DNA of 64,000 nt from Minisyncoccota bacterium (GCA_035708165.1 DASSSZ010000005.1:112840-176839); one strand, 5' to 3'. Counted from the first letter of the stretch, positions 2,023 to 64,000 are shown. Program-made: numbers and translations. The notes: generated by a model from the letters alone, not told the origin.

Positions 2023-2096
2023 CCGCCCGTAGCTCAGCTGGTTAGAGCTCGGAGCTTATACCTCCGCGGTCCTTGGTTCGAATCCAAGCGGGCGGA
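2023..2096 (+). tRNA. tRNA-Ile, anticodon UAU (gene TAT)
   Basis: Hand-folded cloverleaf. Acceptor CCGCCCG pairs with CGGGCGG. D-arm is GCTC/GAGC and T-arm is CTTGG-TTCGAAT-CCAAG. Anticodon loop is CTTATAC. No CCA is encoded. Confidence 0.75.
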
Positions 2097-2193
2097 CACG
2101 CATTCGCAATTCGTACGAGCGGCACCAGGGTGGCGTGGGATATTCCGCCGCGGTCCTTGGTCGGATCAGTGGGCAGGCGTGCACCGCAAGGAT

Positions 2194-4509: not shown

Positions 4510-6202
4510 CGAAGGAGTAGGAGGAACCGAGCTTCGACTTGGCGGCGCCGAGCGGCATCTCGCCGCCGCGGCTCTTCGCGATGCCCTCGAGCGCCGTTTT
4601 CATCTTCCCGAAGCGCTTCGCCTCCGGCTTGAGGTATTCGATGTCCGCACGCGTGATCTTCCCTTCGCCGAGCAGCTTCTCGACATGCCCGATGATCGTG
4701 CCTTCCGTGAGGCCGCGCGCCTTCGCCATCTCGGCGATGCCGCGCTGCTCATTGATGAGCGCGCGCGTCGCGTCGAAAGTCGCGCCGGGCTTCTGCTTCG
4801 GGCGGGGCTCCGCGGAGGGCGCGTACGCGATCTCTTTGAGAGAGCCTCCCGCCGCACGCAGGAAATTCTCATGGAGTGTCGCGAGCTCGGCGGGATCGAG
4901 TGCGGCGAACTGCTCCGCAGCCGCATCGGACCGCTCGCGGAAGGCAGCGTCGGCCGCGAGGATCTCGGGATGCACTTCGAGCGCGCGCTTGTTAAGGCCG
5001 GCGAGCGAAAGGCCCTCGAGCGAGCGCACGCGCGAGAGCGCCACGTATCCCTGTCCGTACTCGAAGACGTCCGAGAGGTCCATGTGCGCCGCATCGAGCG
5101 ACATCCCTTGGCTCTTATGCACCGTCATCGCCCAGGCGAGCCGCAGCGGCACCTGCCGGATCGAGGCGAGCACGCGGCCGCCTTCTTCGAGGCGCCATTC
5201 ATCGGGCTCCGCGACGATCGTCGCGCCATCGTGCGTCCGTACGATCGGGTAGCCGCTCCCGTCCGCGAAGCCGGCCACTTCGCCCAGGGTGCCGTTCGCG
5301 TAGCGGTGCATTGCCGCATCGTTCTTCGTGAACATGACGCGGGCGCCTTCCTTCAAGACGAGCGTCTCGGGAGAGAGGCACCCGCGCACCAGGGCGGCGA
5401 CCAGGTTCGCGGGCCCGGCGCTCGTCATCGAGAATGCGCGTCTGTCGCCGGCAAGCGCGCCAAGAGCGCGATCGTTCAGAGCGTCCACGTTCGCGTTCCT
5501 GCTGTAGAGCTGCGTGACGCCCGGAGCAGGGCGCGACGCGTAGCGCGTGCGCAGGAGCGCGAGGTGCTGCTCGCCGTGCGTGCCGCTCCTCACGGCGTTG
5601 AGGAATTCGAGGAACGGCTCATCGCTCTGACGATGCTGCTCGGTGAGGTAGCAGATGAGCGGGTCGAGCGCGTCCCATGCCGCGCTCCCGAAGGCGAAGC
5701 GCGGCGCGGGAGGCGCGTCGTCATAGACGATCTCCTGAGCGGCGCGCTGCTCGCTGCCCTTTGTCTCGACGGGCGGCAGCTGGAAGAAATCGCCGACGAG
5801 CACCACAGTGAGGCCGCCGAATGGGCGCGCATCGCGCCGCACTTCGCGGCAGACAGCGTCCACCATGCTGAGCGTCGCCGCTGAGAGCATCGAGATCTCA
5901 TCGATGATGAGGACCGCGGGTGCGGTGATCCGCTTCACCGCGTTCTTGTTCTGGCTGATCGCATCGAGGTCGTACGCGCTGAGGTCGCGCTTGATGCCGA
6001 TGCCGCTCCAGGAGTGGATGGTCATGCCGCCGATGTGCGTCGCGGCGATGCCGGTCGAGGCGGTGATCGCCGGCTCGAGCCCGTGGCGGCGCAGGTATTC
6101 GACGAATCGGTTGATCGTGTACGTCTTGCCCGCGCCCGGCTCGCCGGTAAGGAAGGCGGATGCGCCGGTCTTCAGTATCGCGAGCGCTTCATCCTGCGTC
6201 AT
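4478..6202 (-). CDS. PIF1/RecD-family ATP-dependent DNA helicase with a C-terminal HTH-like extension
   Basis: Walker A GEPGAGKT, Walker B LIIDEISM and the PIF1 signature GDFFQLPPV. Its 3' end overlaps the recG start by 32 nt. Confidence 0.8.
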   Translation of the reverse strand: MTQDEALAILKTGASAFLTGEPGAGKTYTINRFVEYLRRHGLEPAITASTGIAATHIGGMTIHSWSGIGIKRDLSAYDLDAISQNKNAVKRITAPAVLIIDEISMLSAATLSMVDAVCREVRRDARPFGGLTVVLVGDFFQLPPVETKGSEQRAAQEIVYDDAPPAPRFAFGSAAWDALDPLICYLTEQHRQSDEPFLEFLNAVRSGTHGEQHLALLRTRYASRPAPGVTQLYSRNANVDALNDRALGALAGDRRAFSMTSAGPANLVAALVRGCLSPETLVLKEGARVMFTKNDAAMHRYANGTLGEVAGFADGSGYPIVRTHDGATIVAEPDEWRLEEGGRVLASIRQVPLRLAWAMTVHKSQGMSLDAAHMDLSDVFEYGQGYVALSRVRSLEGLSLAGLNKRALEVHPEILAADAAFRERSDAAAEQFAALDPAELATLHENFLRAAGGSLKEIAYAPSAEPRPKQKPGATFDATRALINEQRGIAEMAKARGLTEGTIIGHVEKLLGEGKITRADIEYLKPEAKRFGKMKTALEGIAKSRGGEMPLGAAKSKLGSSYSFDDIRLARIFL

Positions 6203-6229: not shown

Positions 6230-7456
6230 TTAGAAATCGATCTCGATATGCTCAGGCCTGAATCCGAGACCGATGACACGCGCGGGGATGCGGCGCAGGA
6301 TCGGGAACCAGGCGAGGAACCGGAACGGCAGCGGCATGCGCACTCCTTTCTTCGCGCGAAGGATGGGGGCGAGGAACCGGTCCTGCAGCAGGACCTGCAG
6401 CTTCTGCATGCGCAGCGCCGCCGGCGCGCGCCTCGCCTCGACGGCGTTGAGCGTCGCGAGCGGGAGCGCGCCCTTCTTGGCGCGTAGCGCGGGCACGAGG
6501 ATGTTCGCGGCTCCGATCGCATCCGCGATCGCGTAATTGATGCCGACGCCGCCGACGGGGGACATCGCGTGCGCCGCGTCGCCGATCAGGAGGATGCCGT
6601 CCGCGGCCCACGGCGATACGTGATCAACCGCGACCGAGAGGAGCTTCACGTCGTCCCAGCTCTCGATGCCGGCGAGCGCGCCTTGGGGGAGCTTCGCGAG
6701 CGTGGCGATCGAGGAGCGGAACGCGTCCAGCCCTGCGGCCTTGATCGCATCGAATGCGCCTTTCTCGATGATGAATCCGCACTGCCAATAGTCGTGGCGG
6801 TCGAGCATCACGAGCGCGCCGCCTGCTTCCGTATACGCCAGCGATTCGCGCGTGTCGGCGTCGTGCCGGTCGATCCGGAACCAGAGCACATCGATCGGGA
6901 CGCCGAGCGCCGCGACCTTCGCGCCGAGCGCGTCGCGCATCGTCGAGTGGCGGCCGTCGGCGCCGATCACGAGATCCGCGCTGATATCGAACGCGCCATC
7001 GGCGTCGCGCGCCGTAATGCCGGTGATGCGGCCGCTCTCGTCGCGGATGAGCCCGGTCGCATCCGTCGCCATCAGGAGGGTGAACGCAGGGAACGCGGCG
7101 GCTTTGGTGGCGAGGAAATTGAGGAAATCCCACTGCGGGATGAACGCGATGAAACGCGCGCGAGTGGGGAGGTGCGAGAAATCGGCGACTGCCACTTCAT
7201 CGGGGCCTACGGTGAGCGACATACGCGCCATCTCGCTGTGCGGGAGCGCCAGGAACTCATCGAGGAGCCCGAGCTCGGCGAGCGCATCCATCGTGCTCGG
7301 GTGGATGGTATCTCCGCGGAAGTCGCGGAAGAAGTCCGGCCATTTCTCGAGCACGATGACGCTGATCCCGGCTCGCGCGAGGAGATAACCGAGCATGATG
7401 CCTGCGGGCCCGCCGCCGGCGATGCAGACGCGGGCCTCCTTGTGTCGTGTGTCCAT
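6230..7456 (-). CDS. FAD-dependent oxidoreductase (geranylgeranyl-reductase/UbiH-like)
   Basis: N-terminal Rossmann motif CIAGGGPAGIMLGYLLARAG. The likely start is MDTRHKEARV at 7456; the ORF extends to 7549. Confidence 0.7.
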   Translation of the reverse strand: MDTRHKEARVCIAGGGPAGIMLGYLLARAGISVIVLEKWPDFFRDFRGDTIHPSTMDALAELGLLDEFLALPHSEMARMSLTVGPDEVAVADFSHLPTRARFIAFIPQWDFLNFLATKAAAFPAFTLLMATDATGLIRDESGRITGITARDADGAFDISADLVIGADGRHSTMRDALGAKVAALGVPIDVLWFRIDRHDADTRESLAYTEAGGALVMLDRHDYWQCGFIIEKGAFDAIKAAGLDAFRSSIATLAKLPQGALAGIESWDDVKLLSVAVDHVSPWAADGILLIGDAAHAMSPVGGVGINYAIADAIGAANILVPALRAKKGALPLATLNAVEARRAPAALRMQKLQVLLQDRFLAPILRAKKGVRMPLPFRFLAWFPILRRIPARVIGLGFRPEHIEIDF

Positions 7457-39446: not shown

Positions 39447-40857
39447 TCCTATGCCGGATCTCGACACGCTCACCATCACTGAGGCGCGTCGCGCGCTTGA
39501 CGCCCGCGAAGTGAGCGCGGTCGATCTCGCGCATGCCTACCTCGAGCGCATCGCGGAGCGCAACGAGGAGCTCAATGCCTACCTCGAGGTCTACGATGAC
39601 GTGCGCGCGCAAGCGGAAGCGGCGGACAGGATGATCGCGGAGGGCCGGGCGCAGCCGCTGACCGGCATCCCGATCGCGATAAAGGATAATCTCCTCAACG
39701 AAGGGAAGCGCGCGACCAGCGCCTCGAAGATCCTCGAAGGGTACGTCGCGCCGTATACCGCGACAGCGGTCGCGAAGCTCAAAGAGCAGGGCGCCGTGAT
39801 CCTCGGGCGCGCGAACATGGATGAGTTCGCGATGGGCGGCTCGACCGAGCACTCGGCGTACGGCCCTTCGCGGAACCCGCACGACCCGTCCCGCATCCCG
39901 GGCGGCAGCTCGGGCGGCTCGGCCGTCGCCGTTGCGGCCGGCCTCGCGCTCGCAGCGCTCGGCTCGGATACCGGCGGCTCCATCCGCCAGCCTGCGAGCT
40001 TCTGCGGCGTGGTAGGGCTCAAGCCCACGTACGGCAGCGTCTCGCGCTACGGGCTGATGGCGATGGGCAGTAGTCTCGACCAAGTGGGGCCTATCACGAA
40101 GACGATCGCGGATGCGAAGCTGCTCTTCGAGGCGATCCGCGGCCACGATGCGAATGACGGCACCTCGCTGCCGGACGGCTTCTATCCGGCGCCGGGCGCG
40201 CCGAAGCGGATCGGCGTGCCGCGCGCGTTCCTCGGCGACGGCGTCGATCCGGCCGTGCTCGACCGGTTCGAGGCGATGCTCGCCCGTGCGCGCGATGCAG
40301 GGTACGACGTCGTCGATATCGACCTGCCCGCGCTCGCGGCGACGCTCGCGGCGTACTACATCATCATGCCAGCCGAGAGCTCCACGAACCTCTCGCGCTT
40401 CGACGGCATCCGCTACGGATTCTCGGCCGAGGCCGAAGCCATCCAGGAGACGTACGAGGAGACGCGCGCGCGCGGCTTCGGGCCGGAGGTCCGCCGCCGC
40501 ATCCTCACGGGCGCCTTCGTGCTCTCATCCGGCTACGTGGATGCCTACTACCGACGCGCGCTCGCGATCCGCGAGGCGCTCCGCGATGAGCTGCGCGCCG
40601 CGTTCGCATCCGTCGATGCGATCGCGCTGCCGACCGCCCCGACCGTTGCCTGGCATATCGGCGAAGTCACCGATCCGGTCGCGATGTACGCGTCGGACAT
40701 CTTCACCGTCCCGGTGAACCTTGCCGGCGTCCCGGCCGTCTCGATCCCTGCCGGCACGGCCGATGCGGAAGGTACCGACATGCCGGTGGGCTTCCAGCTC
40801 ATCGCGCCGTGGGGCGCCGAGGAGACGCTCTTCACGCTCGGCGAAGAGCTCGCTTAG
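39436..40857 (+). CDS. gatA: Asp-tRNA(Asn)/Glu-tRNA(Gln) amidotransferase subunit A
   Basis: Amidase signature [14 protein letters not shown] and the Ser-cisSer-Lys triad region. The start may be the second Met (39451). Confidence 0.9.
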
Positions 40858-40904
40858 GCACAGCGGCTCTCTCAGGCGCGATCGGCCTTCGGTATACTAG
40901 AGCG

Positions 40905-41705
40905 ATGGAGTTCTCGACGAGCACGTCGGTCGCCATTCAGGATGGCATCCTCACGGTGCTCATTTTCATATCGAACCTCGTCTTCAAATGGGTGCCGGCG
41001 GCGATGAACGTGCTGCTCGCGCAGCTGACGGGGACGGCAGTACCGGCCGCGGTCACGAGCGGCACGGGGACGCAGGTCGGGCTTGAGGCGAGCAGCTACG
41101 CGCCGAGTGGCATCGAGACCGGCACGACCGCGCTCGGCAGTGCGGCGACGACCGCGCCTGCGACGCCTGCAGCCGAGACGATCTCGTTCGGGAGCCAGAC
41201 GCTGCATACCGCATGGAGCATCTTCGCGCCGCTCTCCATCTTCATCTCGCTCCTGATCGCGACCTGGGTGGTCTACGCGCTGATCCGGCTCTCCCAGGTG
41301 AAGCGCGCCGAGAAGCAGGCGCTGGCCGCAGTGAGGGAGCGCCCGACGCCGCACATCGCTGCACAGCCGGTCGAAGCCGGGCCAAGCGACGCGCAGAAAC
41401 GCTGGGCAAGGATCGAGACGCAGATCGCGAGCGATAACGAGAACGAATGGCGCCTCGCCATCCTCGAGGCGGATATCATGCTCGACGAAGCGCTGGAGCG
41501 CGCCGGCTATACCGGCGATACCATCGGCGACAAGCTGAAAAGCGCGCAGCGAGGCGATTTCAAGACTCTCGACCTTGCCTGGGACGCGCACAAGGTGCGC
41601 AACCACATCGCGCATCGCGGCACGGCGCACGATCTCAACCAGCGCGAGGCCAAGCGCGTGATCGGGGAATACGAGCAGGTATTCCATGAATTCAACTTCA
41701 TATAA
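40905..41705 (+). CDS. hypothetical membrane protein with a C-terminal helical domain carrying an Rx4H motif (HEPN-like?)
   Basis: Start MEFSTST at 40905. TM segments near the N-terminus and at IFAPLSIFISLLIATWVVYALI. C-terminal ...KVRNHIAHRGTAH.... Confidence 0.45.
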   Translation: MEFSTSTSVAIQDGILTVLIFISNLVFKWVPAAMNVLLAQLTGTAVPAAVTSGTGTQVGLEASSYAPSGIETGTTALGSAATTAPATPAAETISFGSQTLHTAWSIFAPLSIFISLLIATWVVYALIRLSQVKRAEKQALAAVRERPTPHIAAQPVEAGPSDAQKRWARIETQIASDNENEWRLAILEADIMLDEALERAGYTGDTIGDKLKSAQRGDFKTLDLAWDAHKVRNHIAHRGTAHDLNQREAKRVIGEYEQVFHEFNFI

Positions 41706-41758
41706 GCGCGGCGCATGCCTTGACCGGAGGCTCCGCGAGAGGTACCCTATGGATACAC

Positions 41759-41829
41759 AGCGGGGTGGAGGAGCGGTACCTCACGAGGCTCATAACCTCG
41801 GGACCCTGGTTCGAATCCAGGCCCCGCAA
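41759..41829 (+). tRNA. tRNA-Met, anticodon CAU, initiator-like (unpaired A1•A72)
   Basis: D-arm GAGG/CCTC. Anticodon stem CGAGG/CCTCG with loop CTCATAA. T-arm CCTGG-TTCGAAT-CCAGG. Acceptor AGCGGGG/CCCCGCA leaves positions 1:72 unpaired, as in bacterial initiators. Confidence 0.65.
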
Positions 41830-42190
41830 CAAGCAAACGAGAACCCGGCGCATGCCGGGTTCTCGTTTGCGCGGCGCGGGGAAGAAGGCAGCCTGCGCTG
41901 CCTTCGCCTGGATCCGAACAGGCGGAGCCGTATCGCGCGCAGCGAAGCGAGCACGATCGGCGAGCCCGGGGAGGAAGTCCTTAACGAGCGGAGCGAGTTT
42001 AGGAACTTGACCCTCGAATCCAGGCCCCGCAACAAGGAAACACGAGCGGCCATTCGGCCGCTCGCGTTCTTCGTATTTCTCGTAGGTGCGGGCAGGTGCC
42101 GTCCGGAGTCGACTTTCCAGGCCCACAACTGCTGCTCCACCCTCCAATAGCAACGATCCGATAGGCAAGCCTATCGGATCGTTGCTTATG

Positions 42191-42264
42191 CGCGAGTGAA
42201 GGGACTTGAACCCTCGGCCTCCGCCGTGACAGGGCGGCGCTCTAACCAGCTGAGCTACACCCGC
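42191..42264 (-). tRNA. tRNA-Asp, anticodon GUC
   Basis: Reverse complement folds as GCGGGTG-TA-GCTC..GAGC-G-CCGCC-CTGTCAC-GGCGG-AGGCC-GAGGG-TTCAAGT-CCCTT-CACTCGC-G. Confidence 0.85.
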
Positions 42265-42483
42265 ATTGAAACTGGGTCGCAGGTCTCCCGCAGCGGGGCG
42301 GAATGACTATAGCATAACCATGCCCCGCGAACACATCCGCATCAGGTGGATGCGAACGATGCGATTGTAGCAGAAAAAGCTTCCCGTGTCGTGTGCCGAG
42401 CGGCCATCCTGGCGGCCGCTCTACTGCGTGCACCACGTGCCGCGGGTACGGCTCTGGCGGGCGCGTCCGCCCTTGGTCTTGTG

Positions 42484-42557
42484 TGTCGGGGGTGGGGCAT
42501 GATCCCACGACCTTAGCGTTATGAATGCTACGCTCTAACCAGCTGAGCTACCCCGAC
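42484..42557 (-). tRNA. tRNA-Met (elongator) or tRNA-Ile2, anticodon CAU
   Basis: Reverse complement has a fully paired acceptor GTCGGGG/CCCCGAC, anticodon loop TTCATAA and T-arm GTGGG-ATCATGC-CCCAC (unusual T-loop). Confidence 0.7.
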
Positions 42558-54055: not shown

Positions 54056-54787
54056 ATGGCGCTCTCGCTTATCTCTCTCAATATCGAGCGGGACCGGCAC
54101 CTGCCCGCAGTCGAGGCGCTCCTGCAGGAAACGGCACCGGATGTGGCTTGCCTCCAGGAGGTTTTCGAAGCAGACCTGCCAGCACTCGCGAAAGCGGCCG
54201 AGGGTGAGGCGCTCTTCGTGCCGCGCATCCGCTATCCGAGCCCGCGCGGCCTCATGCCGGAAGGGCTCGCGATCATTTCCCGACGAGGGCTCTCCGATCA
54301 GGCATCAGCATGCTATGCCGGCGAGAAGGCCGCGATCCCGATCGCGGCGATCGACGGCTCCGTCGAGGAGAAGCAGCGCGACCAGCGCTATAGCATCGCG
54401 TCCTGCCTCGTCGAGAAGGATGGCGCCTCTTACCGCATCGTGACGACGCATTTCCCCTGGACGCCCGACGGCGAAGCGGATGCGTTCCAGCGCGATGCGC
54501 TCGCAGGGCTCTTCAGCGTGCTCGAGCCATTAGGCGAATTCGTGCTGACCGGCGATTTCAATGCGCCGCGCGGCAAGGAGATCTTCAGTGCGATCGCCGA
54601 GCGGTACGCGGATGCCGTGCCGCCCGCGTATGGATCTTCGATCGACGGACGCATCCATCGCGCCGGACCGATCCCGTACATGGTGGATGGCCTGTTCTCG
54701 ACGCAGGACTATCGCATCTCGGACGTCGTGATGCGCTGCGGCGTCTCCGATCACTGCGCGCTCGCCGGGGCAATCGAGCGCGCCTGA
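54056..54787 (+). CDS. endonuclease/exonuclease/phosphatase (EEP) family protein
   Basis: Start MALSLISLNIE at 54056. ...CLQEV..., VTTHFPW, LTGDFNAPRG and VSDHCAL are motifs typical of the EEP fold. Confidence 0.7.
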   Translation: MALSLISLNIERDRHLPAVEALLQETAPDVACLQEVFEADLPALAKAAEGEALFVPRIRYPSPRGLMPEGLAIISRRGLSDQASACYAGEKAAIPIAAIDGSVEEKQRDQRYSIASCLVEKDGASYRIVTTHFPWTPDGEADAFQRDALAGLFSVLEPLGEFVLTGDFNAPRGKEIFSAIAERYADAVPPAYGSSIDGRIHRAGPIPYMVDGLFSTQDYRISDVVMRCGVSDHCALAGAIERA

Positions 54788-57084
54788 TTCCCGCCGAGCC
54801 GCTCCGCGATGCCGTCCTCGACAGCCATCAGCGGCGCGCCGAAGGTGAGGCGGGAGAGCTCGGCGAGCTTCTCCGCGACCTCGGGGCTGCCGCGCGGAGG
54901 CAGCGGGATCGTCATATTGAACGCGCGCGTGGGCTGCCCGTGCACCAGGGGGCGGATGATCGCGTGCAGATTGGGGAGGGTGATGAGGTCGGTCGAGGCG
55001 AAGTTCGGCGCCATGTGCTTCTCCAGGGCCTCCGCGTCCTCGGTCCCCACGCGGAAGGAGACCAGCGTGCCCGCATTGCCGAAGACCGCATCGCGGATAT
55101 GCTCCGGCAGCTGCCCGAGGTACTGGTGCGCGATGGTGAGATTAAGGCGGTACTTGCGCGCTTCGGAGAGGATGGTCGTGATGGAGTCGGTGGTGAAGTT
55201 CTGGAATTCATCGATATAGAGGTAGAAGTCGCGCCGTTCCTCCTGCGCGACGTCATCGCGCCCGAGCGCAGCCATGAGGAGCTTGCCGGTGATCACCATG
55301 CCGAGCAGGTTCGCATTGATCTCGCCGATCCTGCCCTTCGGGAGCTTCACGATGAGGATCTTCCCTTCGTCCATCACCTGCCGGAAATCGAAGGCGCTCT
55401 TCACCTGGCCGATGATCGGCCGCATGTAATCGTTGCCGATGAAGCCGCCGAACTTCGAGGTGATATAGGGCGTCATGTTCGCGAGCGCGCCTTCGCCGCC
55501 GGCCTTCTCGGCCTCTTCGCGCCAGAAATTCGCGACGACAGGATTCCGGCAGCGCTCAAGCTTCGCGCGGCGCCACGCGGCATCGGTGAAGATGCGCGGG
55601 ACCTCGACGAGCGTCGCCGGCTCGACGGCAGCGTCTTCCATGAGCAGGAGGAGCGCGTTGCGCATGTACTGCTCGAACATCGGGCCCATCGTCTCCTCTG
55701 AGTAGAGGCGATTGAAGATGGATTGCATCTCGTTCACGATGAAGGTCTTCTGCTCCGGGCGGCTGGGGTCGAACTCGAGCATGTTGAGCCCGAGCGGGCG
55801 GCCGAGCTCCGAGGGGTCGAACACGATCACGTCCTCGATGCGCTCCGCCGGCACGAGCCCCAGGATCTCATCGGCGAGGTCGCCGTTCGGATCGATGAGG
55901 CACGCACCAGCGCCGCGCGCGATATCCTGCGCGAGCATGCCGCGGATGAGCGTGGACTTGCCGGTGCCTGTCTGGCCCACCATGTACACGTGCCGCCGTC
56001 TATCCTCGTCCGTGAGCCGCACGTCGCGATGCTCGCCCCGGAACTCGCTTTGGCCGAGCATGATGCCTTCGGCGGGGAGCGCCGGGGCTTCCGCTGAACG
56101 CGCCGAGTGCCAGGCGATGCGCGGGATATCCAGATCGGCAGTAGGCAGGTGGAAGATGCTCGCGAGCTCCTCGGTGTTCATCGGCATGGCGCCTTCGCCC
56201 GGCTCGCGGAACGCGTAGCGATACGCGAGGCTTTTCATATCCCGCGGCTTCTTCAGCCCGAACGCGTTCCGGGTAGGGCCGGCGAACTGGCCGAAGCTTC
56301 CGGCGATATCGAGCAGGAGGTCAGCCGCGCGGTCGCTCGATTCGGCTGCGACGATGATGCGCACTTCCGCCGAGAGCAGCGGCTTCGCGATCTTGCGCTC
56401 GAGCGCCTGCACGGCTGCATCATCGATAGGGCGGAAGCGCTCTTCATGAGGGTCCTCCTTGCGCGGGCTTCCCGCGAAGGCCTTCTTCACGTCGGTGAAC
56501 GCATTCTCGCTGAGGATGGCGGAAAGCTTCTCGCCGCCCTGCACGCGCTCGATCGCGCTCCGGACGGATTTCGCGAAGCTGCCAGGGGCAGGGCTGACGA
56601 TGATCTGGAGCGCGGCCCCGTCGCCTGCATCATTGAGCTTCCCCAGAGAGGAGAGGATCCCGGCGAACGTGTCCACCTCCGCTTCCGCATACGTGCGGAT
56701 CGGGAGAAGCGGCTTCTCTTTCATGGTGAGCGTGCCCCCGGCCGTCCGGCTTCCTTGGCCGAAGATCGTATAGTCGTCCGTCTCCTCGACGCGCGCACGG
56801 GGGAATAGCCCGAGGATCTGCTGCTCGGCGAAGCTGCGCTTCGCGCGGGGCACGGCGATATAGAAATGGATATCAGTCCCGACATTGTGCACCGCGACCT
56901 CGAAGACGAACGGTTCGCCGAGCGAGAGCAGGGATGCGAAGAGCTGCTCGCTGCGCTTGATATCGGAAAGCTCGTTCCGCGGATCGCGCTCCTCGCCGGC
57001 CGGACGCGGCAGCGTGATCTCGAGCAGCCGGAGCTCGAGCTGCTCCGCGAGATGCTTCTTGGAGAAGGGGAGAGCGAAGGCCAT
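54751..57084 (-). CDS. FtsK/HerA-superfamily P-loop ATPase, TraD/VirD4-like (type IV coupling protein/DUF87-type)
   Basis: Walker A VGQTGTGKST and Walker B YLYIDEFQNF. A ~330-aa N-terminal region of unknown function. 777 aa. Confidence 0.5.
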   Translation of the reverse strand: MAFALPFSKKHLAEQLELRLLEITLPRPAGEERDPRNELSDIKRSEQLFASLLSLGEPFVFEVAVHNVGTDIHFYIAVPRAKRSFAEQQILGLFPRARVEETDDYTIFGQGSRTAGGTLTMKEKPLLPIRTYAEAEVDTFAGILSSLGKLNDAGDGAALQIIVSPAPGSFAKSVRSAIERVQGGEKLSAILSENAFTDVKKAFAGSPRKEDPHEERFRPIDDAAVQALERKIAKPLLSAEVRIIVAAESSDRAADLLLDIAGSFGQFAGPTRNAFGLKKPRDMKSLAYRYAFREPGEGAMPMNTEELASIFHLPTADLDIPRIAWHSARSAEAPALPAEGIMLGQSEFRGEHRDVRLTDEDRRRHVYMVGQTGTGKSTLIRGMLAQDIARGAGACLIDPNGDLADEILGLVPAERIEDVIVFDPSELGRPLGLNMLEFDPSRPEQKTFIVNEMQSIFNRLYSEETMGPMFEQYMRNALLLLMEDAAVEPATLVEVPRIFTDAAWRRAKLERCRNPVVANFWREEAEKAGGEGALANMTPYITSKFGGFIGNDYMRPIIGQVKSAFDFRQVMDEGKILIVKLPKGRIGEINANLLGMVITGKLLMAALGRDDVAQEERRDFYLYIDEFQNFTTDSITTILSEARKYRLNLTIAHQYLGQLPEHIRDAVFGNAGTLVSFRVGTEDAEALEKHMAPNFASTDLITLPNLHAIIRPLVHGQPTRAFNMTIPLPPRGSPEVAEKLAELSRLTFGAPLMAVEDGIAERLGGNQARSIAPASAQ

Positions 57085-57569: not shown

Positions 57570-57640
57570 TGCCGGATCGTCTAATGGTAGGACAACGGAT
57601 TCTGGCTCCGTTTATCTAGGTTCGAGTCCTAGTCCGGCAG
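57570..57640 (+). tRNA. tRNA-Gln, anticodon CUG
   Basis: TGCCGGA-TC-GTCT-AATGGTA-GGAC-A-ACGGA-TTCTGGC-TCCGT-TTAT-CTAGG-TTCGAGT-CCTAG-TCCGGCA-G. Confidence 0.85.
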
Positions 57641-57715
57641 CAGCTTAGTTTAGTATCGAAGGACCTAGAGGGGTATAAATGCTTCTGTTTCTACTCACCC
57701 CCCGAAAGGCCTATA

Positions 57716-60529
57716 ATGTATGGGTTGCCCATTATGGATTCTTACAAGTATGGGTCTAAATGGCGTAGGTGGGATTTGCACCTACATACACCAGAAACCC
57801 TAAAAGAAGATCAGTACACTGGAACGACGCCCGAGGAAAAGTGGGAGAATTTTTGCAATGATATAAACTCCACCGACGCTGAAGTATCGGTCGTGGGCGT
57901 AACCGACTATCTCCTCATCGATAACTACAGGAAATTCCACTCCTTCATCGATTCAGGGAAGATCACCAAGAAATTCGACCTTGTCATCCCAAACATCGAG
58001 CTTCGGCTTACCCCGGTGACCGGAAGCGGGACAGCCTTGAACCTCCACCTATTAATCGATCCTGCGTTCGTGGACCAGCTCGAGTCCCGCATTTACTCAA
58101 AACTCAAAATCAAAAGCGGCACGACGGAATACACCGCTCTTCGGGCTGACTTGATTCGTCTCGGTAAGACGATAGATGCGGCAGCTTCAGACGACGTCGC
58201 GTACAAGAAAGGAGCCGAGCAGTTCGTCATCGATTTCGATACCCTCAAAGGAGTCTTTGATAACGATCCCGACCTGCGTAACCACTGCCTCATTGTGGTG
58301 GCTAACAGCTCGCATGATGGAGCCACGGGTGTAACGCACCACGCAAGCTTCTTCACGGCTACCGGCTCGAGCCTCGATACTAAGCGACAGGCGATTTACA
58401 AATTTGTTGACGCTATATTCTCCGCTAATCCTAGCGACCGTACATACTTCCTCGGTAAGTCTTCCAGCGATACACGCGACATCGTCATCGACAAGTGCGG
58501 AAGTCTCAAGCCGTGCGTGCACGGATGCGATGCGCATACTAACGCGAAGATCTTTAAGCCGGATCAAAATCGATATTGCTGGATAAAGGCGAATCCTACG
58601 TTCGAGGGCCTACGACAAATCCTATTCGAGCCGGAGGAGCGCATCTGCGTTCAAGAGCTACAGCCGGATGAGAAGGAGCTTTATCGCGTTATCGACAAGG
58701 TGAAGCTGACCGATGCGAATTTCACTGCCGAGCCGCTCGAACTCAATCCGAATCTGAACGTAATTATCGGCAGCCGCTCATCAGGAAAAACGACGCTGCT
58801 TAACAGCATTGCTAAAGCGGTAGACGTATCTGAATACGAGCTGCGTCATAAAGATTCCCCGCCCATAAAGGAACCTCCAAGCGCAAACGTGTTCTGGCTC
58901 GACGGCGCGGAAAGCGGTGCTGCAGAAACGCAGAAAGGCATTACCTACATACCTCAAAACTACATAAACAGCCTCGCCGAAGCGACCGAGGAAAATTCGC
59001 CCATACTTGAGATCGCCGAGAATGCGCTCTTCGACAGCACAGGCGGCATTGCTCAGGAAAGGAAGGATTTAAATCTCAAAATCGAGCAACTTAACCGCAC
59101 CATCGGTAACGACGTCTACCAGCTTTTTGTTACCCGGAAGCAGATCGCCGAGCAGAAGGAGAAGATCAAAAAGATCGGCGACAAAAAAGGTATAGAGGAG
59201 CAAATCAAGAAAGTCGAAGCCGAAATCGCGAAGCTTCAAAAGGACCTTACCAAAGCTGAGGCTGCTACTTTAAAGAAGCTCCGTGAAGAGTATGCGGACA
59301 ATAAAAAGCAAATCGAGACCATTACTGCTGATGTCGAGACGCTGACCGAGGAAACCGCTGATGTCGAAAGGGGTGCCAGCTTTTTTGAGGAAAGATCGCT
59401 CAGCTTGAAATCCGAGGAGCTGTCACGAGAGCTTGGCGAATTCACTGGCAAGCTCCAGGATGAATACCTGCAAAAGTACGTAGCGTTCGTTAATAGGAAA
59501 AAGGAGGAGCTGGCCAAGGAAAAGAAAAAACTCGAGGAAGACAATAAGAAAATACTCGACAACAACAAGGTCCTTATTGATAAGGCAAAGCAGAACACGG
59601 CCGCCGATCAGAAAGTGAAGGAGAAGGAGGCTCAGGACAAAAAGCTCGCGGAAATATCGTCGGCAGAGAAGGCGCTCAAGACCAGCGAGGATGCGCTATT
59701 GGCCACGCTCACAAAAATCGTTCTGGCGCACAAGGAGCGCTCTAACGCCCGACATGCCTTCGTCGCGAAAGCAACCGGAGATCTGGAAGGGATCGAGTAC
59801 CGCGCAGTGGTGGGGATCGACACGGTGAAGCTCGATAAGTTCATGACGGATTTCGTGAACTTCCACAACTCAACCGGCGCACGTACCCAGCTCAATGCGA
59901 TTCCTGGCTATAAAACGGGCGAGGACACGGATGTTTCGACTCTGATAAAAAACGACAACATTAAGACAACCGCCGAACTTATTCTTAGCGATACCTTGAA
60001 GCTTAAAGCCGGCATCGATTTGCAGCGCGCCATCGAGGGACTGTTCGGCGACTTTGAATTCATCAACTACTCTCTCAAATATGAGGGCGACAACTACCCT
60101 GAAATGACCCCAGGCAAGAAATCTCTCGTCGTATTAAAGCTGCTCGTCGAATCCAGCGAGGATAAATATCCGATTCTCATAGACCAGCCAGAGGACGATC
60201 TCGATAGCCGTTCAATATCGGGCGAAATCGTCGATTTCTTACGCTCCAAAAAGAAGGAGCGACAGATTATCCTCGTCACACATAACGCGAACATTGCTAT
60301 CAAGGCAGATGCGGAGGAGATCATTGTCGCCAACCGTCACTCTACGCAGCATCCGAACAAGAATGCTGTCATGTTTGATTACACGACAGGCGCTATCGAG
60401 ACGAGCTTCGTAAATCCGTCTGCCGCATTTTCTCTTGACAAAATGGGTATGCGCGAGCATGCATGTGAACTTCTGGAAGGTGGTGAGGAAGCGTTCGAGA
60501 ATCGGAAGAATAAATATAATCTAAAGTAA
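57716..60529 (+). CDS. PHP-domain phosphoesterase fused to an SMC/OLD-like ABC ATPase (single-protein anti-phage defense candidate, Ppl-like architecture)
   Basis: N-terminal PHP motifs (WDLHLHTPET, ...SSHDGATGVTHHASF, CVHGCDAHT). ABC ATPase with Walker A IIGSRSSGKTTLLNSI, a ~250-aa coiled-coil insertion, Walker B/D-loop ILIDQPEDDLD and H-loop LVTHNAN. A TATAAT box lies 6 nt upstream. Confidence 0.8.
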   Translation: MYGLPIMDSYKYGSKWRRWDLHLHTPETLKEDQYTGTTPEEKWENFCNDINSTDAEVSVVGVTDYLLIDNYRKFHSFIDSGKITKKFDLVIPNIELRLTPVTGSGTALNLHLLIDPAFVDQLESRIYSKLKIKSGTTEYTALRADLIRLGKTIDAAASDDVAYKKGAEQFVIDFDTLKGVFDNDPDLRNHCLIVVANSSHDGATGVTHHASFFTATGSSLDTKRQAIYKFVDAIFSANPSDRTYFLGKSSSDTRDIVIDKCGSLKPCVHGCDAHTNAKIFKPDQNRYCWIKANPTFEGLRQILFEPEERICVQELQPDEKELYRVIDKVKLTDANFTAEPLELNPNLNVIIGSRSSGKTTLLNSIAKAVDVSEYELRHKDSPPIKEPPSANVFWLDGAESGAAETQKGITYIPQNYINSLAEATEENSPILEIAENALFDSTGGIAQERKDLNLKIEQLNRTIGNDVYQLFVTRKQIAEQKEKIKKIGDKKGIEEQIKKVEAEIAKLQKDLTKAEAATLKKLREEYADNKKQIETITADVETLTEETADVERGASFFEERSLSLKSEELSRELGEFTGKLQDEYLQKYVAFVNRKKEELAKEKKKLEEDNKKILDNNKVLIDKAKQNTAADQKVKEKEAQDKKLAEISSAEKALKTSEDALLATLTKIVLAHKERSNARHAFVAKATGDLEGIEYRAVVGIDTVKLDKFMTDFVNFHNSTGARTQLNAIPGYKTGEDTDVSTLIKNDNIKTTAELILSDTLKLKAGIDLQRAIEGLFGDFEFINYSLKYEGDNYPEMTPGKKSLVVLKLLVESSEDKYPILIDQPEDDLDSRSISGEIVDFLRSKKKERQIILVTHNANIAIKADAEEIIVANRHSTQHPNKNAVMFDYTTGAIETSFVNPSAAFSLDKMGMREHACELLEGGEEAFENRKNKYNLK

Positions 60530-61798
60530 AATTAGGTTTTTATTTTCCAGCTGTAGTTGGGATTTCAGGCAAGTGAGAAGATCTCGCCTCTCAAATATCG
60601 ACCCTTCGGTTAGCAGGTACTTCGCGTAGTTGCGAATATCGGCGTCCTTCACAGAATAATTCTCGTCTGCCTTGCCCATAATCCCTGAATGGAACTTCTT
60701 ATGCCGCTCAATCTCAGCCTCGAGCTTTTTCTTGATACCAGAGCGGTCAAGATCTATCTGGTCAATAATTTCCGTTAGTTGCGAGATAAGGACCTTCTCC
60801 TCAATGTAGCCTTCTTTGCAGTTGATATTCCGTGAGCGAGTGCAACCATAGTAGATGTACTTGGCGATCGAACCGTCCTTCAGGGTCTTGAATTTCTCTT
60901 GGGCCGTCACACCGGATCCGCAGGTTCCACAGGAGAGCAAACGAGTGAAAGCGAACTCTTTGTTTTTGCCTCGGGCTTTGATTTGAAGGTGAAGCTGCTT
61001 CTGCACCTCTTCGAAAAGTTCTCTGGATATGAGTGGCGTATGCTTACCCTGGAACCATCGGCCGCTGTTCTTGGGGTATTCAAAAGTACCGTAGTAGAAG
61101 TGGTTATTGAGAATGACGTATACGTTGCTCAGAGTTAGAGGTTTGCCGGTACGGGTAACGAATTTGATTTCCTTGAGCCAGCGATATACTTTCCTACCAC
61201 TCCAGCCTTCATTGGCTACTTTCTGAAAGAGTTCCTTCATAACAGGGGCTCGATCAGGATCTACGAACACCACGCCTTTCTGATCCTTATTTTTTGAATT
61301 GAGATAACCGGTTGGGGCTACTGAAGGCCAGAGGCCGAGCTCGCACTTGGTTTTGAGCCCGCGCTTCACATTGATGCTCTTGTTGTCGTTCTCCAGCTTC
61401 GCCTGGCTACCAAGGATCATGAGAAGGAACTTCTCATTGGGGTTGTTAGTGAAGCGTTGACTGTAAGTACGAATTTCAATGAGCTTCTTCTGGTCGAAGA
61501 GATCCACGATCGCCCCAAGGTCGCCGGCATTGCGGGATAGACGGTCCGGATGCCACACCAAGATCCCATTGAATTTACCCTCCCGAATATTGAGAAGGAG
61601 CTGGTTGAACACAGGCCGCTGGCCGGCATCCTTTGCGGAGTGCGATTCTCGGTACATATCGACCACATTCAGTCCGTCTCGCTGCGCTAAGGCCAACATC
61701 TCCTTAAGCTGGGAATCTATCGAAAGCGCCTGTTTTTCCTCGGCTTCGCTCGATTTTCGGGCGTACAGGCAGTACCTGACTGGCTCCTGGTTTTCCAT
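60521..61798 (-). CDS. large serine recombinase (serine integrase)
   Basis: Resolvase catalytic N-terminus VRYCLYARKSSEAEEKQALSIDSQ (nucleophile Ser). Recombinase domain. Zinc-ribbon CGTCGSGV...YYGCTRSRNINC plus a coiled coil. The start could alternatively be 61843. Confidence 0.85.
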   Translation of the reverse strand: MENQEPVRYCLYARKSSEAEEKQALSIDSQLKEMLALAQRDGLNVVDMYRESHSAKDAGQRPVFNQLLLNIREGKFNGILVWHPDRLSRNAGDLGAIVDLFDQKKLIEIRTYSQRFTNNPNEKFLLMILGSQAKLENDNKSINVKRGLKTKCELGLWPSVAPTGYLNSKNKDQKGVVFVDPDRAPVMKELFQKVANEGWSGRKVYRWLKEIKFVTRTGKPLTLSNVYVILNNHFYYGTFEYPKNSGRWFQGKHTPLISRELFEEVQKQLHLQIKARGKNKEFAFTRLLSCGTCGSGVTAQEKFKTLKDGSIAKYIYYGCTRSRNINCKEGYIEEKVLISQLTEIIDQIDLDRSGIKKKLEAEIERHKKFHSGIMGKADENYSVKDADIRNYAKYLLTEGSIFERRDLLTCLKSQLQLENKNLILL

Positions 61799-61911
61799 AC
61801 AACACAACACATGCCCGAAGCCGGGGAAGAAGTCCATACCCAAGCTGGTGGTAAGAAATACGGCTTTAAACCAAGGCGATTTCGTGATAAAATCATGAAA
61901 ATCCTTATTTT

Positions 61912-63510
61912 ATGGCCACGTTGAATTGGATCGGAAAAGAGGCGGTGGCAAACCACGACAAAGAGGTGCCTTTCAAGTTGCTTGAGAAAGTCCCGAGCGC
62001 ATCCGTCGGTAAGGAATCAAAGAATCTCGTCATTCACGGCGACAATCTAGAAGCACTTAAAGCACTTTTGCCTTTCTATCAAGGCGAGGTTAAGTGCATT
62101 TATATTGATCCTCCATACAACACCGGAAACGAGGATTGGGCATACAACGATAATGTAAGTTCTCCCAAAATTCGAGAGTGGATCAAGAAAACTGTGGGGC
62201 GAGAAGGGGAAGACCTCACTAGACATGACAAGTGGCTTTGCATGATGTATCCCCGTCTTAAACTCCTTCGTGATCTTTTACGGGATGACGGGGTCATATT
62301 TGTCAGTATCGATGACAATGAACAGCACCACCTCAAGATACTGATGGATGAGATTTTCACAGCTCGGAATTTTATTGGGCAGATTACCGTCGTTGGAAAC
62401 CCACGAGGTAGAGATTATGGTGGAATTGCGCGCATGCACGACTACCTTCTTGTTTACTCGAAGGAGTTTGGAAAGGCAGATATCAACAACTTGAACGATC
62501 CTGATAAGGAGTTTCCTTTTGAGGACAGCAGGGGAGGTTTTGAGATTCGCGAGCTACGCAATCGCAATATTGCTTTCCATATAGGGAATAGGCCTAATCT
62601 TCATTACCCCTTTTATGTCAATCCAAAGAAGAAAGACGAGAATGGTTTTTTTGAGATCTCGCTTGAGAAAAAGAGTGGCTGGACTGAAGTTTTTCCGAAA
62701 GAATCTCAGGGATTTAAGACTGTTTGGCGTTGGGGGAAAGCGCGTTCTCAGCAAAATCTGAATACTGAAATTGTTGCAAAGAAGATGATGGATGGTGGTT
62801 ATCAGATTGTTGAAAAGTATCGTGAGAGAACACGGATGGCTCGATCTGTCTGGTGGGACAAAGATGATAATACTGAAAAAGGAACGCTGGAGGTTAAGAA
62901 TCTTTTTGATGGCAAGAAAGTGTTCAATTTCCCTAAGTCCATGGAAATGGTACGGAAGGTGGTTGAGATGGGTACTGGACCAGACGACATTGTCCTTGAT
63001 TCGTTTGCGGGATCGGGTACAACAGGCCACGCTGTGCTCGATTTAAACAAAATGGATGGCGGACACCGTCGCTTTATTTTGGTTGAAATGGAAGATGACG
63101 TCGTGAAGAAAATCACTGCTGAAAGGATCAAGAAAGCTATAAAAAAGTACGACTATGACGGAGGCTTTGAATATTGCGAGCTCGCTTCCGCCCTTTTTGA
63201 TCAGAATGGATTGATAAATGAGTCGTGTTCATATGCCGACTTGGCTTCTTACATTTTCTTCACCGAGACGCAAACAAACGTCGATAAAAAAGCAATCAAA
63301 AATCCATTCGTTGGTGAGAGTGGCGGGATTTCCTACTACCTCGTTTACGCTGGCCGTGGAAAAAATGACTTAACTCGAGCTTCACTCAGCAAGCTCAAGA
63401 TCGCCGGTCCTGCAGTCGTATATGCTGATCGTTGTCTTGTGGACGAGGATGAACTGAAGGAGAAAGGTATTACCTTCAAACAGATCCCGTACGAGATAAC
63501 AATCTACTAA
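61912..63510 (+). CDS. mod: Type III restriction-modification system methyltransferase (Mod), N6-adenine type
   Basis: Motif IV DPPYN, motif I FAGSGTTG and Mod-like overall architecture. 532 aa. Confidence 0.9.
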   Translation: MATLNWIGKEAVANHDKEVPFKLLEKVPSASVGKESKNLVIHGDNLEALKALLPFYQGEVKCIYIDPPYNTGNEDWAYNDNVSSPKIREWIKKTVGREGEDLTRHDKWLCMMYPRLKLLRDLLRDDGVIFVSIDDNEQHHLKILMDEIFTARNFIGQITVVGNPRGRDYGGIARMHDYLLVYSKEFGKADINNLNDPDKEFPFEDSRGGFEIRELRNRNIAFHIGNRPNLHYPFYVNPKKKDENGFFEISLEKKSGWTEVFPKESQGFKTVWRWGKARSQQNLNTEIVAKKMMDGGYQIVEKYRERTRMARSVWWDKDDNTEKGTLEVKNLFDGKKVFNFPKSMEMVRKVVEMGTGPDDIVLDSFAGSGTTGHAVLDLNKMDGGHRRFILVEMEDDVVKKITAERIKKAIKKYDYDGGFEYCELASALFDQNGLINESCSYADLASYIFFTETQTNVDKKAIKNPFVGESGGISYYLVYAGRGKNDLTRASLSKLKIAGPAVVYADRCLVDEDELKEKGITFKQIPYEITIY

Positions 63511-63514
63511 TCCT

Positions 63515-64000
63515 ATGAAGCTCAAGCGTTATCAAACAAACGCAATAGAAACGCTGGATCAATTCCTGGATCTCGTCAGGAAGATGAAGCCGCGGCATGC
63601 CTTCAATGAGATAACGGAGCAGGTCTACAACCATGAGTGGTTCGGGGACGTACCTTTTGTGTGTATTCGTATCCCCACGGGCGGCGGAAAAACGTTCGTT
63701 GGCTGCAAGGCAGTCGAACGGATCATGAGCACAGTCCTCCAGAACAAGATGGACACCGGCATTGTGATGTGGTTCGTACCATCAGACTCCATCAAGACTC
63801 AAACGTTGAAGAAGTTCCGAGATCCTAAAGATGCCCACTACCAAGCGCTGAACGAAGCATTCGGGACGAAGTTCAAAGTCTTTTCAAATGAAGAGGCTTT
63901 GACAATTTCGCCGGAGGACGTGACGAATAATCTCTGCGTTATCGTCGCCAGTCTCGATGCATTCAGGAAAGACGCGTCTATTCAGAAAAAGTACAAGGTC
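63515..64000 (+). CDS. res: Type III restriction enzyme Res subunit (helicase/ATPase), 3' end outside the window
   Basis: ATG 5 nt after the mod stop. Walker A IRIPTGGGKTFVG and the beginning of a DEAD-like helicase. Confidence 0.8.
   Translation, partial: MKLKRYQTNAIETLDQFLDLVRKMKPRHAFNEITEQVYNHEWFGDVPFVCIRIPTGGGKTFVGCKAVERIMSTVLQNKMDTGIVMWFVPSDSIKTQTLKKFRDPKDAHYQALNEAFGTKFKVFSNEEALTISPEDVTNNLCVIVASLDAFRKDASIQKKYKV

Follow-up and report, generated by a model that had tools for sequence, protein, structure and literature searches.

The window, by which is meant the whole 64,000-nucleotide stretch of DNA analyzed here, belongs to a “Candidatus Paceibacterota” (CPR) MAG. The locus of interest has the local order ligA, gatA, a gene for a conserved hypothetical protein, tRNA-fMet, an insert, and then, on the minus strand, tRNA-Asp, tRNA-Met, queA, and tgt. 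The hypothetical protein (ORF 40809 to 41705, plus strand) is 100% identical to protein VFL98_03395; it contains no Pfam domain and has 691 homologues in CPR genomes, which lie in the syntenic arrangement ligA-gatC-gatA-ORF-tRNA-fMet in the relatives checked. Beyond the insert, a perfect 18-bp inverted repeat (42149 to 42186; AGCAACGATCCGATAGGC / GCCTATCGGATCGTTGCT) adjoins the end of the minus-strand tRNA-Asp gene and is probably its terminator. The features of the tRNA-fMet gene and the insert are listed below, with the evidence for each in parentheses; A' denotes the segment complementary to the 3' end of the gene.

41759 to 41829, plus strand: initiator-type tRNA-Met(CAU) gene, 71 nt (ARAGORN; Rfam RF00005, 57.1 bits; alignment with related initiator tRNAs)
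41811 to 42013, plus strand: whole putative inserted element, 203 bp (repeat boundaries; family architecture; analogy with empty and filled topA alleles)
41811 to 41838, plus strand: repeat copy 1 (A1), from the T-loop at about position 55 through the acceptor 3' strand and discriminator into the trailer (repeat search)
41835 to 41868, plus strand: hairpin 1, the tip of the long A1/A' hairpin (inverted repeat; MFE fold)
41869 to 41881, plus strand: acceptor part of A' (inverted repeat; MFE fold)
41884 to 41905, plus strand: hairpin Ha, with a 9-bp stem and a CUGC loop (conserved in the family)
41906 to 41919, plus strand: T-arm part of A', GCCTGGATCCGAAC (inverted repeats)
41920 to 42013, plus strand: conserved core with two domains, P2 and P3/Hc (covariance model, 95.5 bits; covariation)
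42014 to 42041, plus strand: repeat copy 2 (A2), probably the displaced native tRNA 3' end with its trailer (repeat; topA alleles; following terminator)
42043 to 42064, plus strand: hairpin 2, probably the native intrinsic terminator of the tRNA gene (terminator scan; empty sites in relatives)

ARAGORN and Rfam agree on a tRNA-Met(CAT) at 41759 to 41829/30, the Rfam score standing well above the gathering score of 29; the tRNA has a 7-nt D loop and a 4-nt variable loop, and its CCA is not encoded. Bacterial initiator tRNAs canonically combine an unpaired C1xA72 with an A11:U24 pair and three consecutive G:C pairs at 29-31:39-41. The window tRNA has A1xA72, which is shown as nonstandard in the Rfam alignment, and A11:U24 in the D stem (GAGG...CCTC), which is kept in relatives. 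Its anticodon stem (A29:U41, G30:C40, G31:C39) contains two G:C pairs, a pattern found in all relatives. These comparisons are based on an alignment with 7 or 8 related initiator tRNAs; position 1 is an A in all eight, opposite A72 in six and opposite G72 in two. The initiator identity proposed in the first-pass annotation is supported by A11:U24, G30:C40, G31:C39, and the unpaired 1:72 position, a mismatch that is conserved in 8/8 related tRNAs. The A:A that it noted at 1:72, in place of the usual C1:A72, is likewise seen, with either A or G at position 72 in the lineage. Judged from this alignment, a purine-purine 1:72 mismatch (A1xR72) replaces the canonical C1xA72 throughout this lineage, a small oddity that may bear on formylation and initiation there. 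The second tRNA-Met(CAT) of the window (42483 to 42557, minus strand) has G1:C72 and is elongator-like.

Initiator tRNA genes of relatives harbor insertions of other kinds (L labels denote loci in other assemblies). At L001 (Logan SRR28401846_219668, 4844 to 5167), the orthologous initiator tRNA is split after CAT in the anticodon loop by a group I intron (RF00028, 58.7 bits, 4867 to 5123), so that ARAGORN misses the gene. This agrees with a report that group I introns occur in tRNAs of Patescibacteria, whereas group II introns are absent from the phylum (PMC13011429). At L023 (ENA ERZ869946 NODE_144, 6841 to 7119), a small GIY-YIG-like ORF lies directly upstream of the initiator tRNA, and 12 nt of the tRNA 5' end (ATAGCGGGGTGA) are duplicated ahead of this ORF; the gene thus seems to have received another insertion, of a type unlike the first.

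Two further observations were made elsewhere in the window. The GC content drops from ∼65% to 45 to 50% right after tRNA-Gln (57570 to 57641), and the region 57570 to 64000 encodes an SMC/AAA ATPase (57716 to 60529), a large serine recombinase (60521 to 61843, minus strand), and an N6/N4 DNA methylase (61912 to 63510), with a VirD4/TraG-like coupling protein (54751 to 57084, minus strand) just upstream of the tRNA. This region looks like a genomic island beside a tRNA gene. In addition, a tRNA-Ile with the anticodon UAU is encoded at 2023 to 2097 (plus strand, 66 bits). Such tRNAs are rare in bacteria, where AUA is usually decoded by a lysidine-modified CAU tRNA, and its presence suggests TilS-independent AUA decoding in this CPR organism.

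The tRNA-fMet locus contains the downstream duplicate of the tRNA 3' end already pointed out in the first-pass annotation. The 22-mer CGAATCCAGGCCCCGCAACAAG has exactly two matches in the window, at 41812 to 41833 and 42015 to 42036, with a spacing of 203, and none would be expected by chance. Extended to 28 nt (41811 to 41838 and 42014 to 42041), the two copies are 96% identical, and beyond the exact repeat, the similarity fades gradually (CAAG-C/G-AAAC-(AC)-GAG). The similarity to a possible third, degenerate copy past hairpin 2 (42037 to 42150) was not significant (z of about 2). The upstream copy, A1, is the one in use in the window tRNA. Each copy is followed by its own hairpin, as had been described. 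Hairpin 1 has a 15-bp stem and a GCAT loop, lacks a following T-run, was not called as a terminator, and forms part of a 28-nt inverted repeat (41822 to 41849 and 41854 to 41881). Hairpin 2 has a 9-bp stem with 8 G-C pairs, followed by a T-rich tail, and it alone of the two scored in the intrinsic terminator scan. The whole region folds far better than shuffled sequence (z = −9; MFE).

Within the insert lies A', an antisense copy of the gene end. GCGGGG at 41876 to 41881 is complementary to CCCCGC in the acceptor 3' strand of both repeat copies (41822 to 41827 and 42025 to 42030). After the interruption by Ha, which splits A' into its acceptor and T-arm parts, the T-arm part is antisense to the T-arm of the tRNA at 41809 to 41822 (13/14) and to copy 2 at 42014 to 42025. 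Thus, in the window, A' extends 2 to 3 nt upstream of the start of the repeat. Ha, with its CUGC loop, recurs at five other loci (L004, L018, L013, L010, and L027), and its stem sequence covaries completely between copies.

The question was widened from one locus to an element family by L004, where the initiator-tRNA site is empty and yet a shared ∼50-nt sequence (GGGGAGGAAGTyCTTAACGAGCGGAGCGAGTTTAGrAACTTGACCC) lies behind tRNA-Asp, flanked by one inverted and one direct copy of the tRNA-Asp 3' end. Further copies were found with a metagenome scan using a 20-mer from the core, with a search using the in-frame translation of the core, and with a covariance model, in assemblies from JGI, ENA, NCBI, and Logan. 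The covariance model has a single match in the window, the core itself, and additional matches elsewhere. The targets include tRNA-fMet (the window, L018, L015, and L025), tRNA-Asp (L004 and L015), tRNA-Gly (L012 and L027), tRNA-Phe (L010), and both tRNA-Leu and tRNA-Val at L035, as well as two protein-coding genes, topA (L013/L014/L020) and clpP (L027 and L036). The same architecture was found at at least 12 independent sites, comprising at least six tRNA species together with topA and clpP. Moreover, the in-frame core translation (EPGQEVLNERSEFRNL) matches 44 spurious small ORFs, implying that many more copies exist. By these searches, the element family is widespread in Paceibacteria/CPR assemblies. 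That the core encodes this peptide was considered and rejected, given an in-frame stop at L012 and changes in the stems that are compensatory rather than synonymous.

The copies share a common layout, which begins with the 3' end of a gene (A1) and continues through a hairpin, present in some copies, to A', which Ha may split, and then to the core, in most cases A2, and a terminator. A2 is a direct copy of the gene end, 19 to 95 nt long, and its start lies in the T-loop at all tRNA targets. No motif is common to the left junctions. Elements range from 130 to 200 bp, the one in the window being about 203 bp, and every copy examined runs in the same direction as its upstream gene. In 7 of the 8 copies examined, A' extends 2 to 7 nt upstream of the insertion point and matches the intact target there. 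Stacked arrays of copies occur at L013, L027, and L035, and nested and decayed copies were also seen. Some copies deviate from this layout. Element 2 of L035 lacks a recognizable downstream repeat. At L004, a 6-nt patch sets the downstream copy apart from tRNA-Asp, the copy is incompatible with the 5' half of tRNA-Asp as it now stands, and the element site contains a repeated block of 77 nt; extra events are therefore required at this locus.

The surroundings of the element are rearranged in several assemblies. At L015 (Ga0210057_1050842), two elements point toward each other, with one bidirectional terminator shared between them, and the end of an IS3-family transposase gene, with terminal repeats, is inserted just upstream of the fMet-type hairpin 1 (1 to 170), so that the element is split from its tRNA. 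In the window (42190 to 42557) and at L015, the minus strand carries the tRNA-Met(elongator)/tRNA-Asp pair, whereas at L004 (6034 to 6267), L022, and L023 (7275 to 7471), the plus strand does; at L025, it is the fMet and Met genes that are inverted. These strand differences indicate that the block adjoining the element has been inverted repeatedly.

The core, about 94 nt long, consists of two helical domains with purine-rich internal loops. P2 (41921 to 41966) has the form GGC[GGA]GCC, a variable hairpin, and GGC[GA]GCC. P3/Hc (41968 to 42013) begins with a 3-bp outer helix and an AGG/GAC internal loop, followed by a hairpin with a conserved bulged A on its 3' strand (42004 in the window), 8 to 9 nt before the 3' junction. 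The top of this hairpin, CUUAAC-GAGCGGAGCGA-GUUUAG, is conserved, with its loop at 41986 to 41996. Across nine copies, 97.6% of the cells at 19 pairs are paired, and 12 pairs show changes on both sides; none of 500 shuffles scored as high, and slid partners were 10 to 44% paired. Independent MFE folds recovered both domains in 7 of the 9 copies. The GACCC of the window, which reads GACGCC in most copies, is explained by a compensatory change from GGC/GCC to GGG/CCC. One-sided changes produced G.U on the gene strand three times against a single A.C, and the clpP copy contains two G.U pairs in P3; that such changes give G.U on the gene strand points to the sense strand as the one that folds, whether as RNA or as top-strand DNA. 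On the strength of the covariation and the shared layout, the interior of the insert is under structural selection, and the window carries an intact copy of the element. The statement in the first-pass annotation that the ∼200 nt between the repeats encode nothing convincing holds for proteins but overlooks this conserved structured element, documented by the family, the covariation, and the covariance model.

Part of the P3 hairpin is also found in other settings. At L010, the GAGCGGAGCGA loop module sits in a different hairpin. Outside the element, CTTAAC-GAGCGGAGCGA-GTTTAG occurs in a tandemly duplicated ∼108-nt spacer between tRNA-Leu(UAA) and tRNA-Arg(ACG) in human-gut contigs (L009/L016/L019/L008); L007 is a further locus with the hairpin top outside the element, and at L011, in a different bacterium, REP-like repeats contain it with the loop GAGCGAAGCGA. 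A match at L017 is a chance coding match. From these occurrences, the CTTAAC/GTTTAG hairpin top looks like a modular motif of wider distribution.

Comparison of empty and filled sites indicates which copy of the gene end is native. At tRNA-fMet, the comparison with relatives proposed earlier yielded four loci at which the gene runs directly into a terminator (L004, L001, L022, and L023), in the order tRNA, CAAGnAAA trailer, and terminator with a T-run. A functional interior kept in all relatives, for example, a structured sRNA, had been named as the alternative to an insertion. The interior is indeed a conserved structured element, but several relatives lack it at this locus, and it turns up at other genes, so that an insertion fits better than a locus-specific sRNA.

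The most informative alleles are those of topA. Within one 90%-identity cluster from nearly identical strains of “Ca. Campbellbacteria,” TopA has either 729 aa (...NPHKLKKK) or 728 aa (...NPHKLIK or ...NPHKLNK). The 729-aa allele (L041/L043) lacks the element and ends in ...aatccgcataaattgaaaaaaaaataa, followed by a terminator. The 728-aa allele (L020) has a different 3' end of ∼70 nt, followed by Ha, A', and the core, and the 729-type end with the same terminator appears only after the core. The end of the empty topA allele thus reappears behind the element in the filled one, which identifies the copy behind the core as the native end, now displaced, and A1 as a part brought by the element; topA is the only target at which this displacement was observed directly. 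In protein-coding genes, A1 and A2 differ at synonymous sites. For clpP, one allele is empty (L037/L040), two others, which differ in subtype (L027 and L036), are filled, and in both filled alleles, A' perfectly matches its own A1, even where the two A1 sequences differ. Neither the ClpP C termini nor a sliding identity plot of clpP told the native end from the replacement. None of the 16 contigs of the species concerned lacks the clpP copy. At L036 (Ga0654430_0000002, 2040 to 2390), an extra ORF of ∼105 aa lies between the element and rny; since it is absent from the empty allele and from the other filled clpP allele, it could be cargo.

In the window, the two repeats are identical to each other over the 22-mer, and the loci compared include no close relative of the window genome; the native copy there is therefore argued from the topA analogy and the terminator. 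By that analogy, we infer that 42014 to 42041 and hairpin 2 are the native tRNA 3' end and terminator, pushed downstream, and that A1 came with the element. This reading draws on two facts: only hairpin 2 looks like a terminator, and empty relatives read tRNA, trailer, terminator.

Searches of databases and of the literature placed the element in no known family. In Rfam 15, the region 41700 to 42180 gave only the tRNA as a significant match at E values of up to 10, permissive thresholds yielding chance miRNA and sRNA matches on the hairpin, and only tRNAs were found in eight loci carrying the element; as a positive control, the group I intron at L001 was detected. No match was obtained with blastn of the insert against plasmid and phage collections, in scans of IMG/VR with two core motifs, or in scans of genome contigs for the upstream ORF or a degenerate tRNA pattern. 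Literature on mobile elements in CPR tRNAs, on structured RNAs in Patescibacteria, and on miniature elements contained no description of the family, the one relevant paper found being that on group I introns in Patescibacteria tRNAs (PMC13011429). No integrase lies inside the insert, whose 203 bp hold only spurious ORFs, and its neighbors are gatA, the hypothetical gene, tRNA-Asp, tRNA-Met, queA, and tgt; no recombinase, transposase, or reverse transcriptase could be linked to the element.

Several specific identities were considered and rejected. A group I intron in the T-loop is contradicted by the lack of an omega-G or U at the possible boundaries and of an RF00028 match. A minus-strand, tmRNA-like reading (“GGAUUCGA”) reflects the reverse complement of the near-palindromic T-loop and has no ARAGORN or Rfam tmRNA hit. 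A likeness to group II domains V/VI (GAGCCGUAU, bulged A) fails because the size, the linker, and the strand that bears the bulge do not agree. Finally, a TR/VR arrangement of a diversity-generating retroelement (DGR) was discarded because the differences between A1 and A2 are not adenine specific.

Taken together, the segment from about 41811 to 42013 is probably a 203-bp noncoding insertion element that lies inside the T-loop of the initiator tRNA gene and carries a replacement 3' end for that gene, a reading held with some confidence. We infer the mobility of the element from its distribution among genes and assemblies. Under this model, the element would have the composition replacement 3' end, A', and core and would insert inside the 3' end of its target gene by Campbell-type recombination between the element-borne copy of the target and the chromosomal target. 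In the window, the empty site would then have run from the tRNA 5' half into ...CCCCGCAACAAGGAAACACGAGCGGCC. Recombination fits the variable length of the repeats, their fading similarity, the synonymous differences between A1 and A2, and the stacked arrays, whereas duplication by a staggered cut does not. Because the element contains no ORF, the enzyme would have to be supplied in trans. The conserved fold and the A1/A' duplex could be the cis-acting features that are recognized, probably in single-stranded form, either as single-stranded DNA (ssDNA) or as a transcript: a single strand would fold into a duplex image of the target (A1/A'), with hairpin 1 capping one end and the core the other. 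Such a folded single-stranded intermediate or recognition form is favored by the conservation of stems rather than sequences, by the sense-strand G.U pairs, and by the A1/A' duplex. That A' in the window matches 2 to 3 target nucleotides upstream of the insertion point suggests that the intact target is read by base pairing.

Two other interpretations were weighed against this one. In the first, which appears unlikely, the insert is a structured RNA module that serves the host as a 3' trailer or 3' UTR: it would be cotranscribed with the upstream gene, A' would pair with the 3' end of that gene, for example, in processing, stability, or termination, homologous recombination would spread the module in a purely passive way and leave the downstream repeats as by-products. 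The constant co-orientation with the upstream gene accords with such a role, as do the one-sided changes to sense-strand G.U pairs, including the two in the clpP P3, the perfect complementarity of A' to its own A1 in L027 and L036, and the occurrence of the clpP copy in 16/16 contigs of the species. No terminator lies between topA or clpP and the core, so that the core is cotranscribed with these genes; at several tRNA targets, however, a terminator does separate the tRNA from the core. A host function is also hard to reconcile with the presence or absence of the element among strains whose TopA proteins fall in one 90% cluster, with the many relatives that do without it at the initiator tRNA, with unrelated genes being hit and their native ends displaced, and with the stacked, nested, and decayed copies.

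In the second, also a doubtful proposition, the insert is a self-guided mobile RNA or ssDNA that needs no protein of its own. The core would serve as a scaffold of the ribozyme or guide-RNA type, and A', masked in cis by A1, as a programmable guide; either the element would insert itself or an RNA-guided enzyme of the host would insert it. Such a mechanism would explain how one core came to colonize at least six tRNA species together with topA and clpP in genome-reduced CPR, and the conservation of the core across such different targets is difficult to account for with a sequence-specific integrase. It would also give a role to the 2 to 7 nt of intact target matched by A' upstream of the insertion point in 7/8 copies, to the conserved purine-rich loops and the bulged A 8 to 9 nt before the 3' junction, and to the loop module that moved to another hairpin at L010. 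However, the complementarity to the target follows trivially from the A1/A' hairpin, the core matches no known ribozyme or guide-RNA family in Rfam 15, and neither a catalytic activity nor a partner protein has come to light; group II introns, moreover, are reported to be absent from Patescibacteria (PMC13011429).

The first-pass annotation itself had suggested an attL/attR-type scar or a nested insertion; as a scar, the repeats would be two attachment sites left by a larger island or prophage after deletion of the interior. One part of that proposal stands: the repeats do bracket DNA inserted at a tRNA 3' end, relatives have empty sites, and classical tRNA att sites likewise show the tRNA 3' end directly repeated from the T-loop onward. 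A low-GC island with a recombinase is also present in the window, but at tRNA-Gln, 16 kb from the insert. The scar itself is very improbable, as the interior belongs to an element family that has the same compact layout and boundaries at at least 12 independent sites and is under structural selection, and as the insert contains no integrase remnant and matches no phage or plasmid. Local tandem duplication or misassembly, conceivable for a MAG contig, in which short repeats can be joined wrongly, is hardly credible when the interior duplicates no neighboring sequence and the same architecture recurs in independent assemblies from four sources (JGI, ENA, NCBI, and Logan).

If the locus is, as argued, an insertion element that brings a replacement 3' end, it is of interest because CPR/Patescibacteria have tiny genomes with few recognized mobile elements. 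A protein-less element of ∼200 bp that repeatedly enters the 3' ends of essential genes (initiator and elongator tRNAs, topA, and clpP) without destroying these genes would represent a new route to persistence for selfish or regulatory DNA. It would also account for duplicates of tRNA 3' ends, for pseudo 3' ends, and for small ORFs wrongly annotated in CPR genomes (...EPGQEVLNERSEFRNL...). Finally, the combination of a compact conserved fold with a guide-like segment makes the family a testable candidate for RNA-guided or structure-guided recombination.

Several known systems share individual features with the element. Group II introns consist of domains I to VI, span about 400 nt or more, and have the domain V bulge on the 3' strand; compared with a group II (IIC) intron, the core has only 94 nt and no RF00029 match, and the bulge of its variable hairpin is on the 5' strand. 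The palindrome-associated elements of the IS200/IS605 type (PATEs) and REP sequences are, like the present element, hairpin-rich miniature elements, and the GAGCGAAGCGA-loop hairpin is found in REP-like repeats; unlike them, the element has no conserved tetra- or pentanucleotide at its junctions and does have a long target repeat, and no TnpA, TnpB, or RAYT was found near it, so that the likeness is one of principle. CIMEs derived from ICEs and miniature elements of the Correia or RPE type are small nonautonomous elements, and the family described here resembles MITEs and CIMEs in being small, multicopy, protein-less, presumably mobilized in trans, and cotranscribed with its neighbors. It differs from MITEs in that terminal inverted repeats and a short fixed duplication are replaced by a target repeat of 19 to 95 nt, with the target changing together with A1/A'. 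The inverted complementarity is internal (A1/A') rather than terminal, which places the element outside the definition of a MITE. With integron attC sites and the attP(+) of CTX phage, the element has in common the primacy of structure over sequence, a hairpin that forms a duplex image of the site, and an extrahelical segment, Ha, that interrupts one arm; this resemblance is one of principle only, the element having no attC-type R and L boxes.

The closest parallels in organization are with elements that integrate into the 3' ends of genes. Williams in 2002 reportedly distinguished a T-loop sublocation class among tRNA integration sites. Genomic islands and P4-type prophages carried into tRNA genes by an integrase likewise show a repeat from the T-loop to the 3' end, supply the 3' part of the gene, displace the native end, and have empty sites. 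In contrast to these, the window element is ∼200 bp long, lacks an integrase or any ORF, and belongs to a family in which one core is combined with many targets; it also contains an internal antisense copy of the att sequence and a covarying RNA-like fold. In protein-coding genes, e14 and phage 21 integrate in icd of Escherichia coli and leave an icdC pseudogene, e14 being a 15-kb prophage remnant with its own integrase. Although the present elements are noncoding and only 130 to 200 bp long, their insertions in topA and clpP follow the same plan as e14 in icd: insertion in the 3' end of a protein-coding gene, an alternative end whose differences are mostly synonymous, and a downstream relic of the native end.
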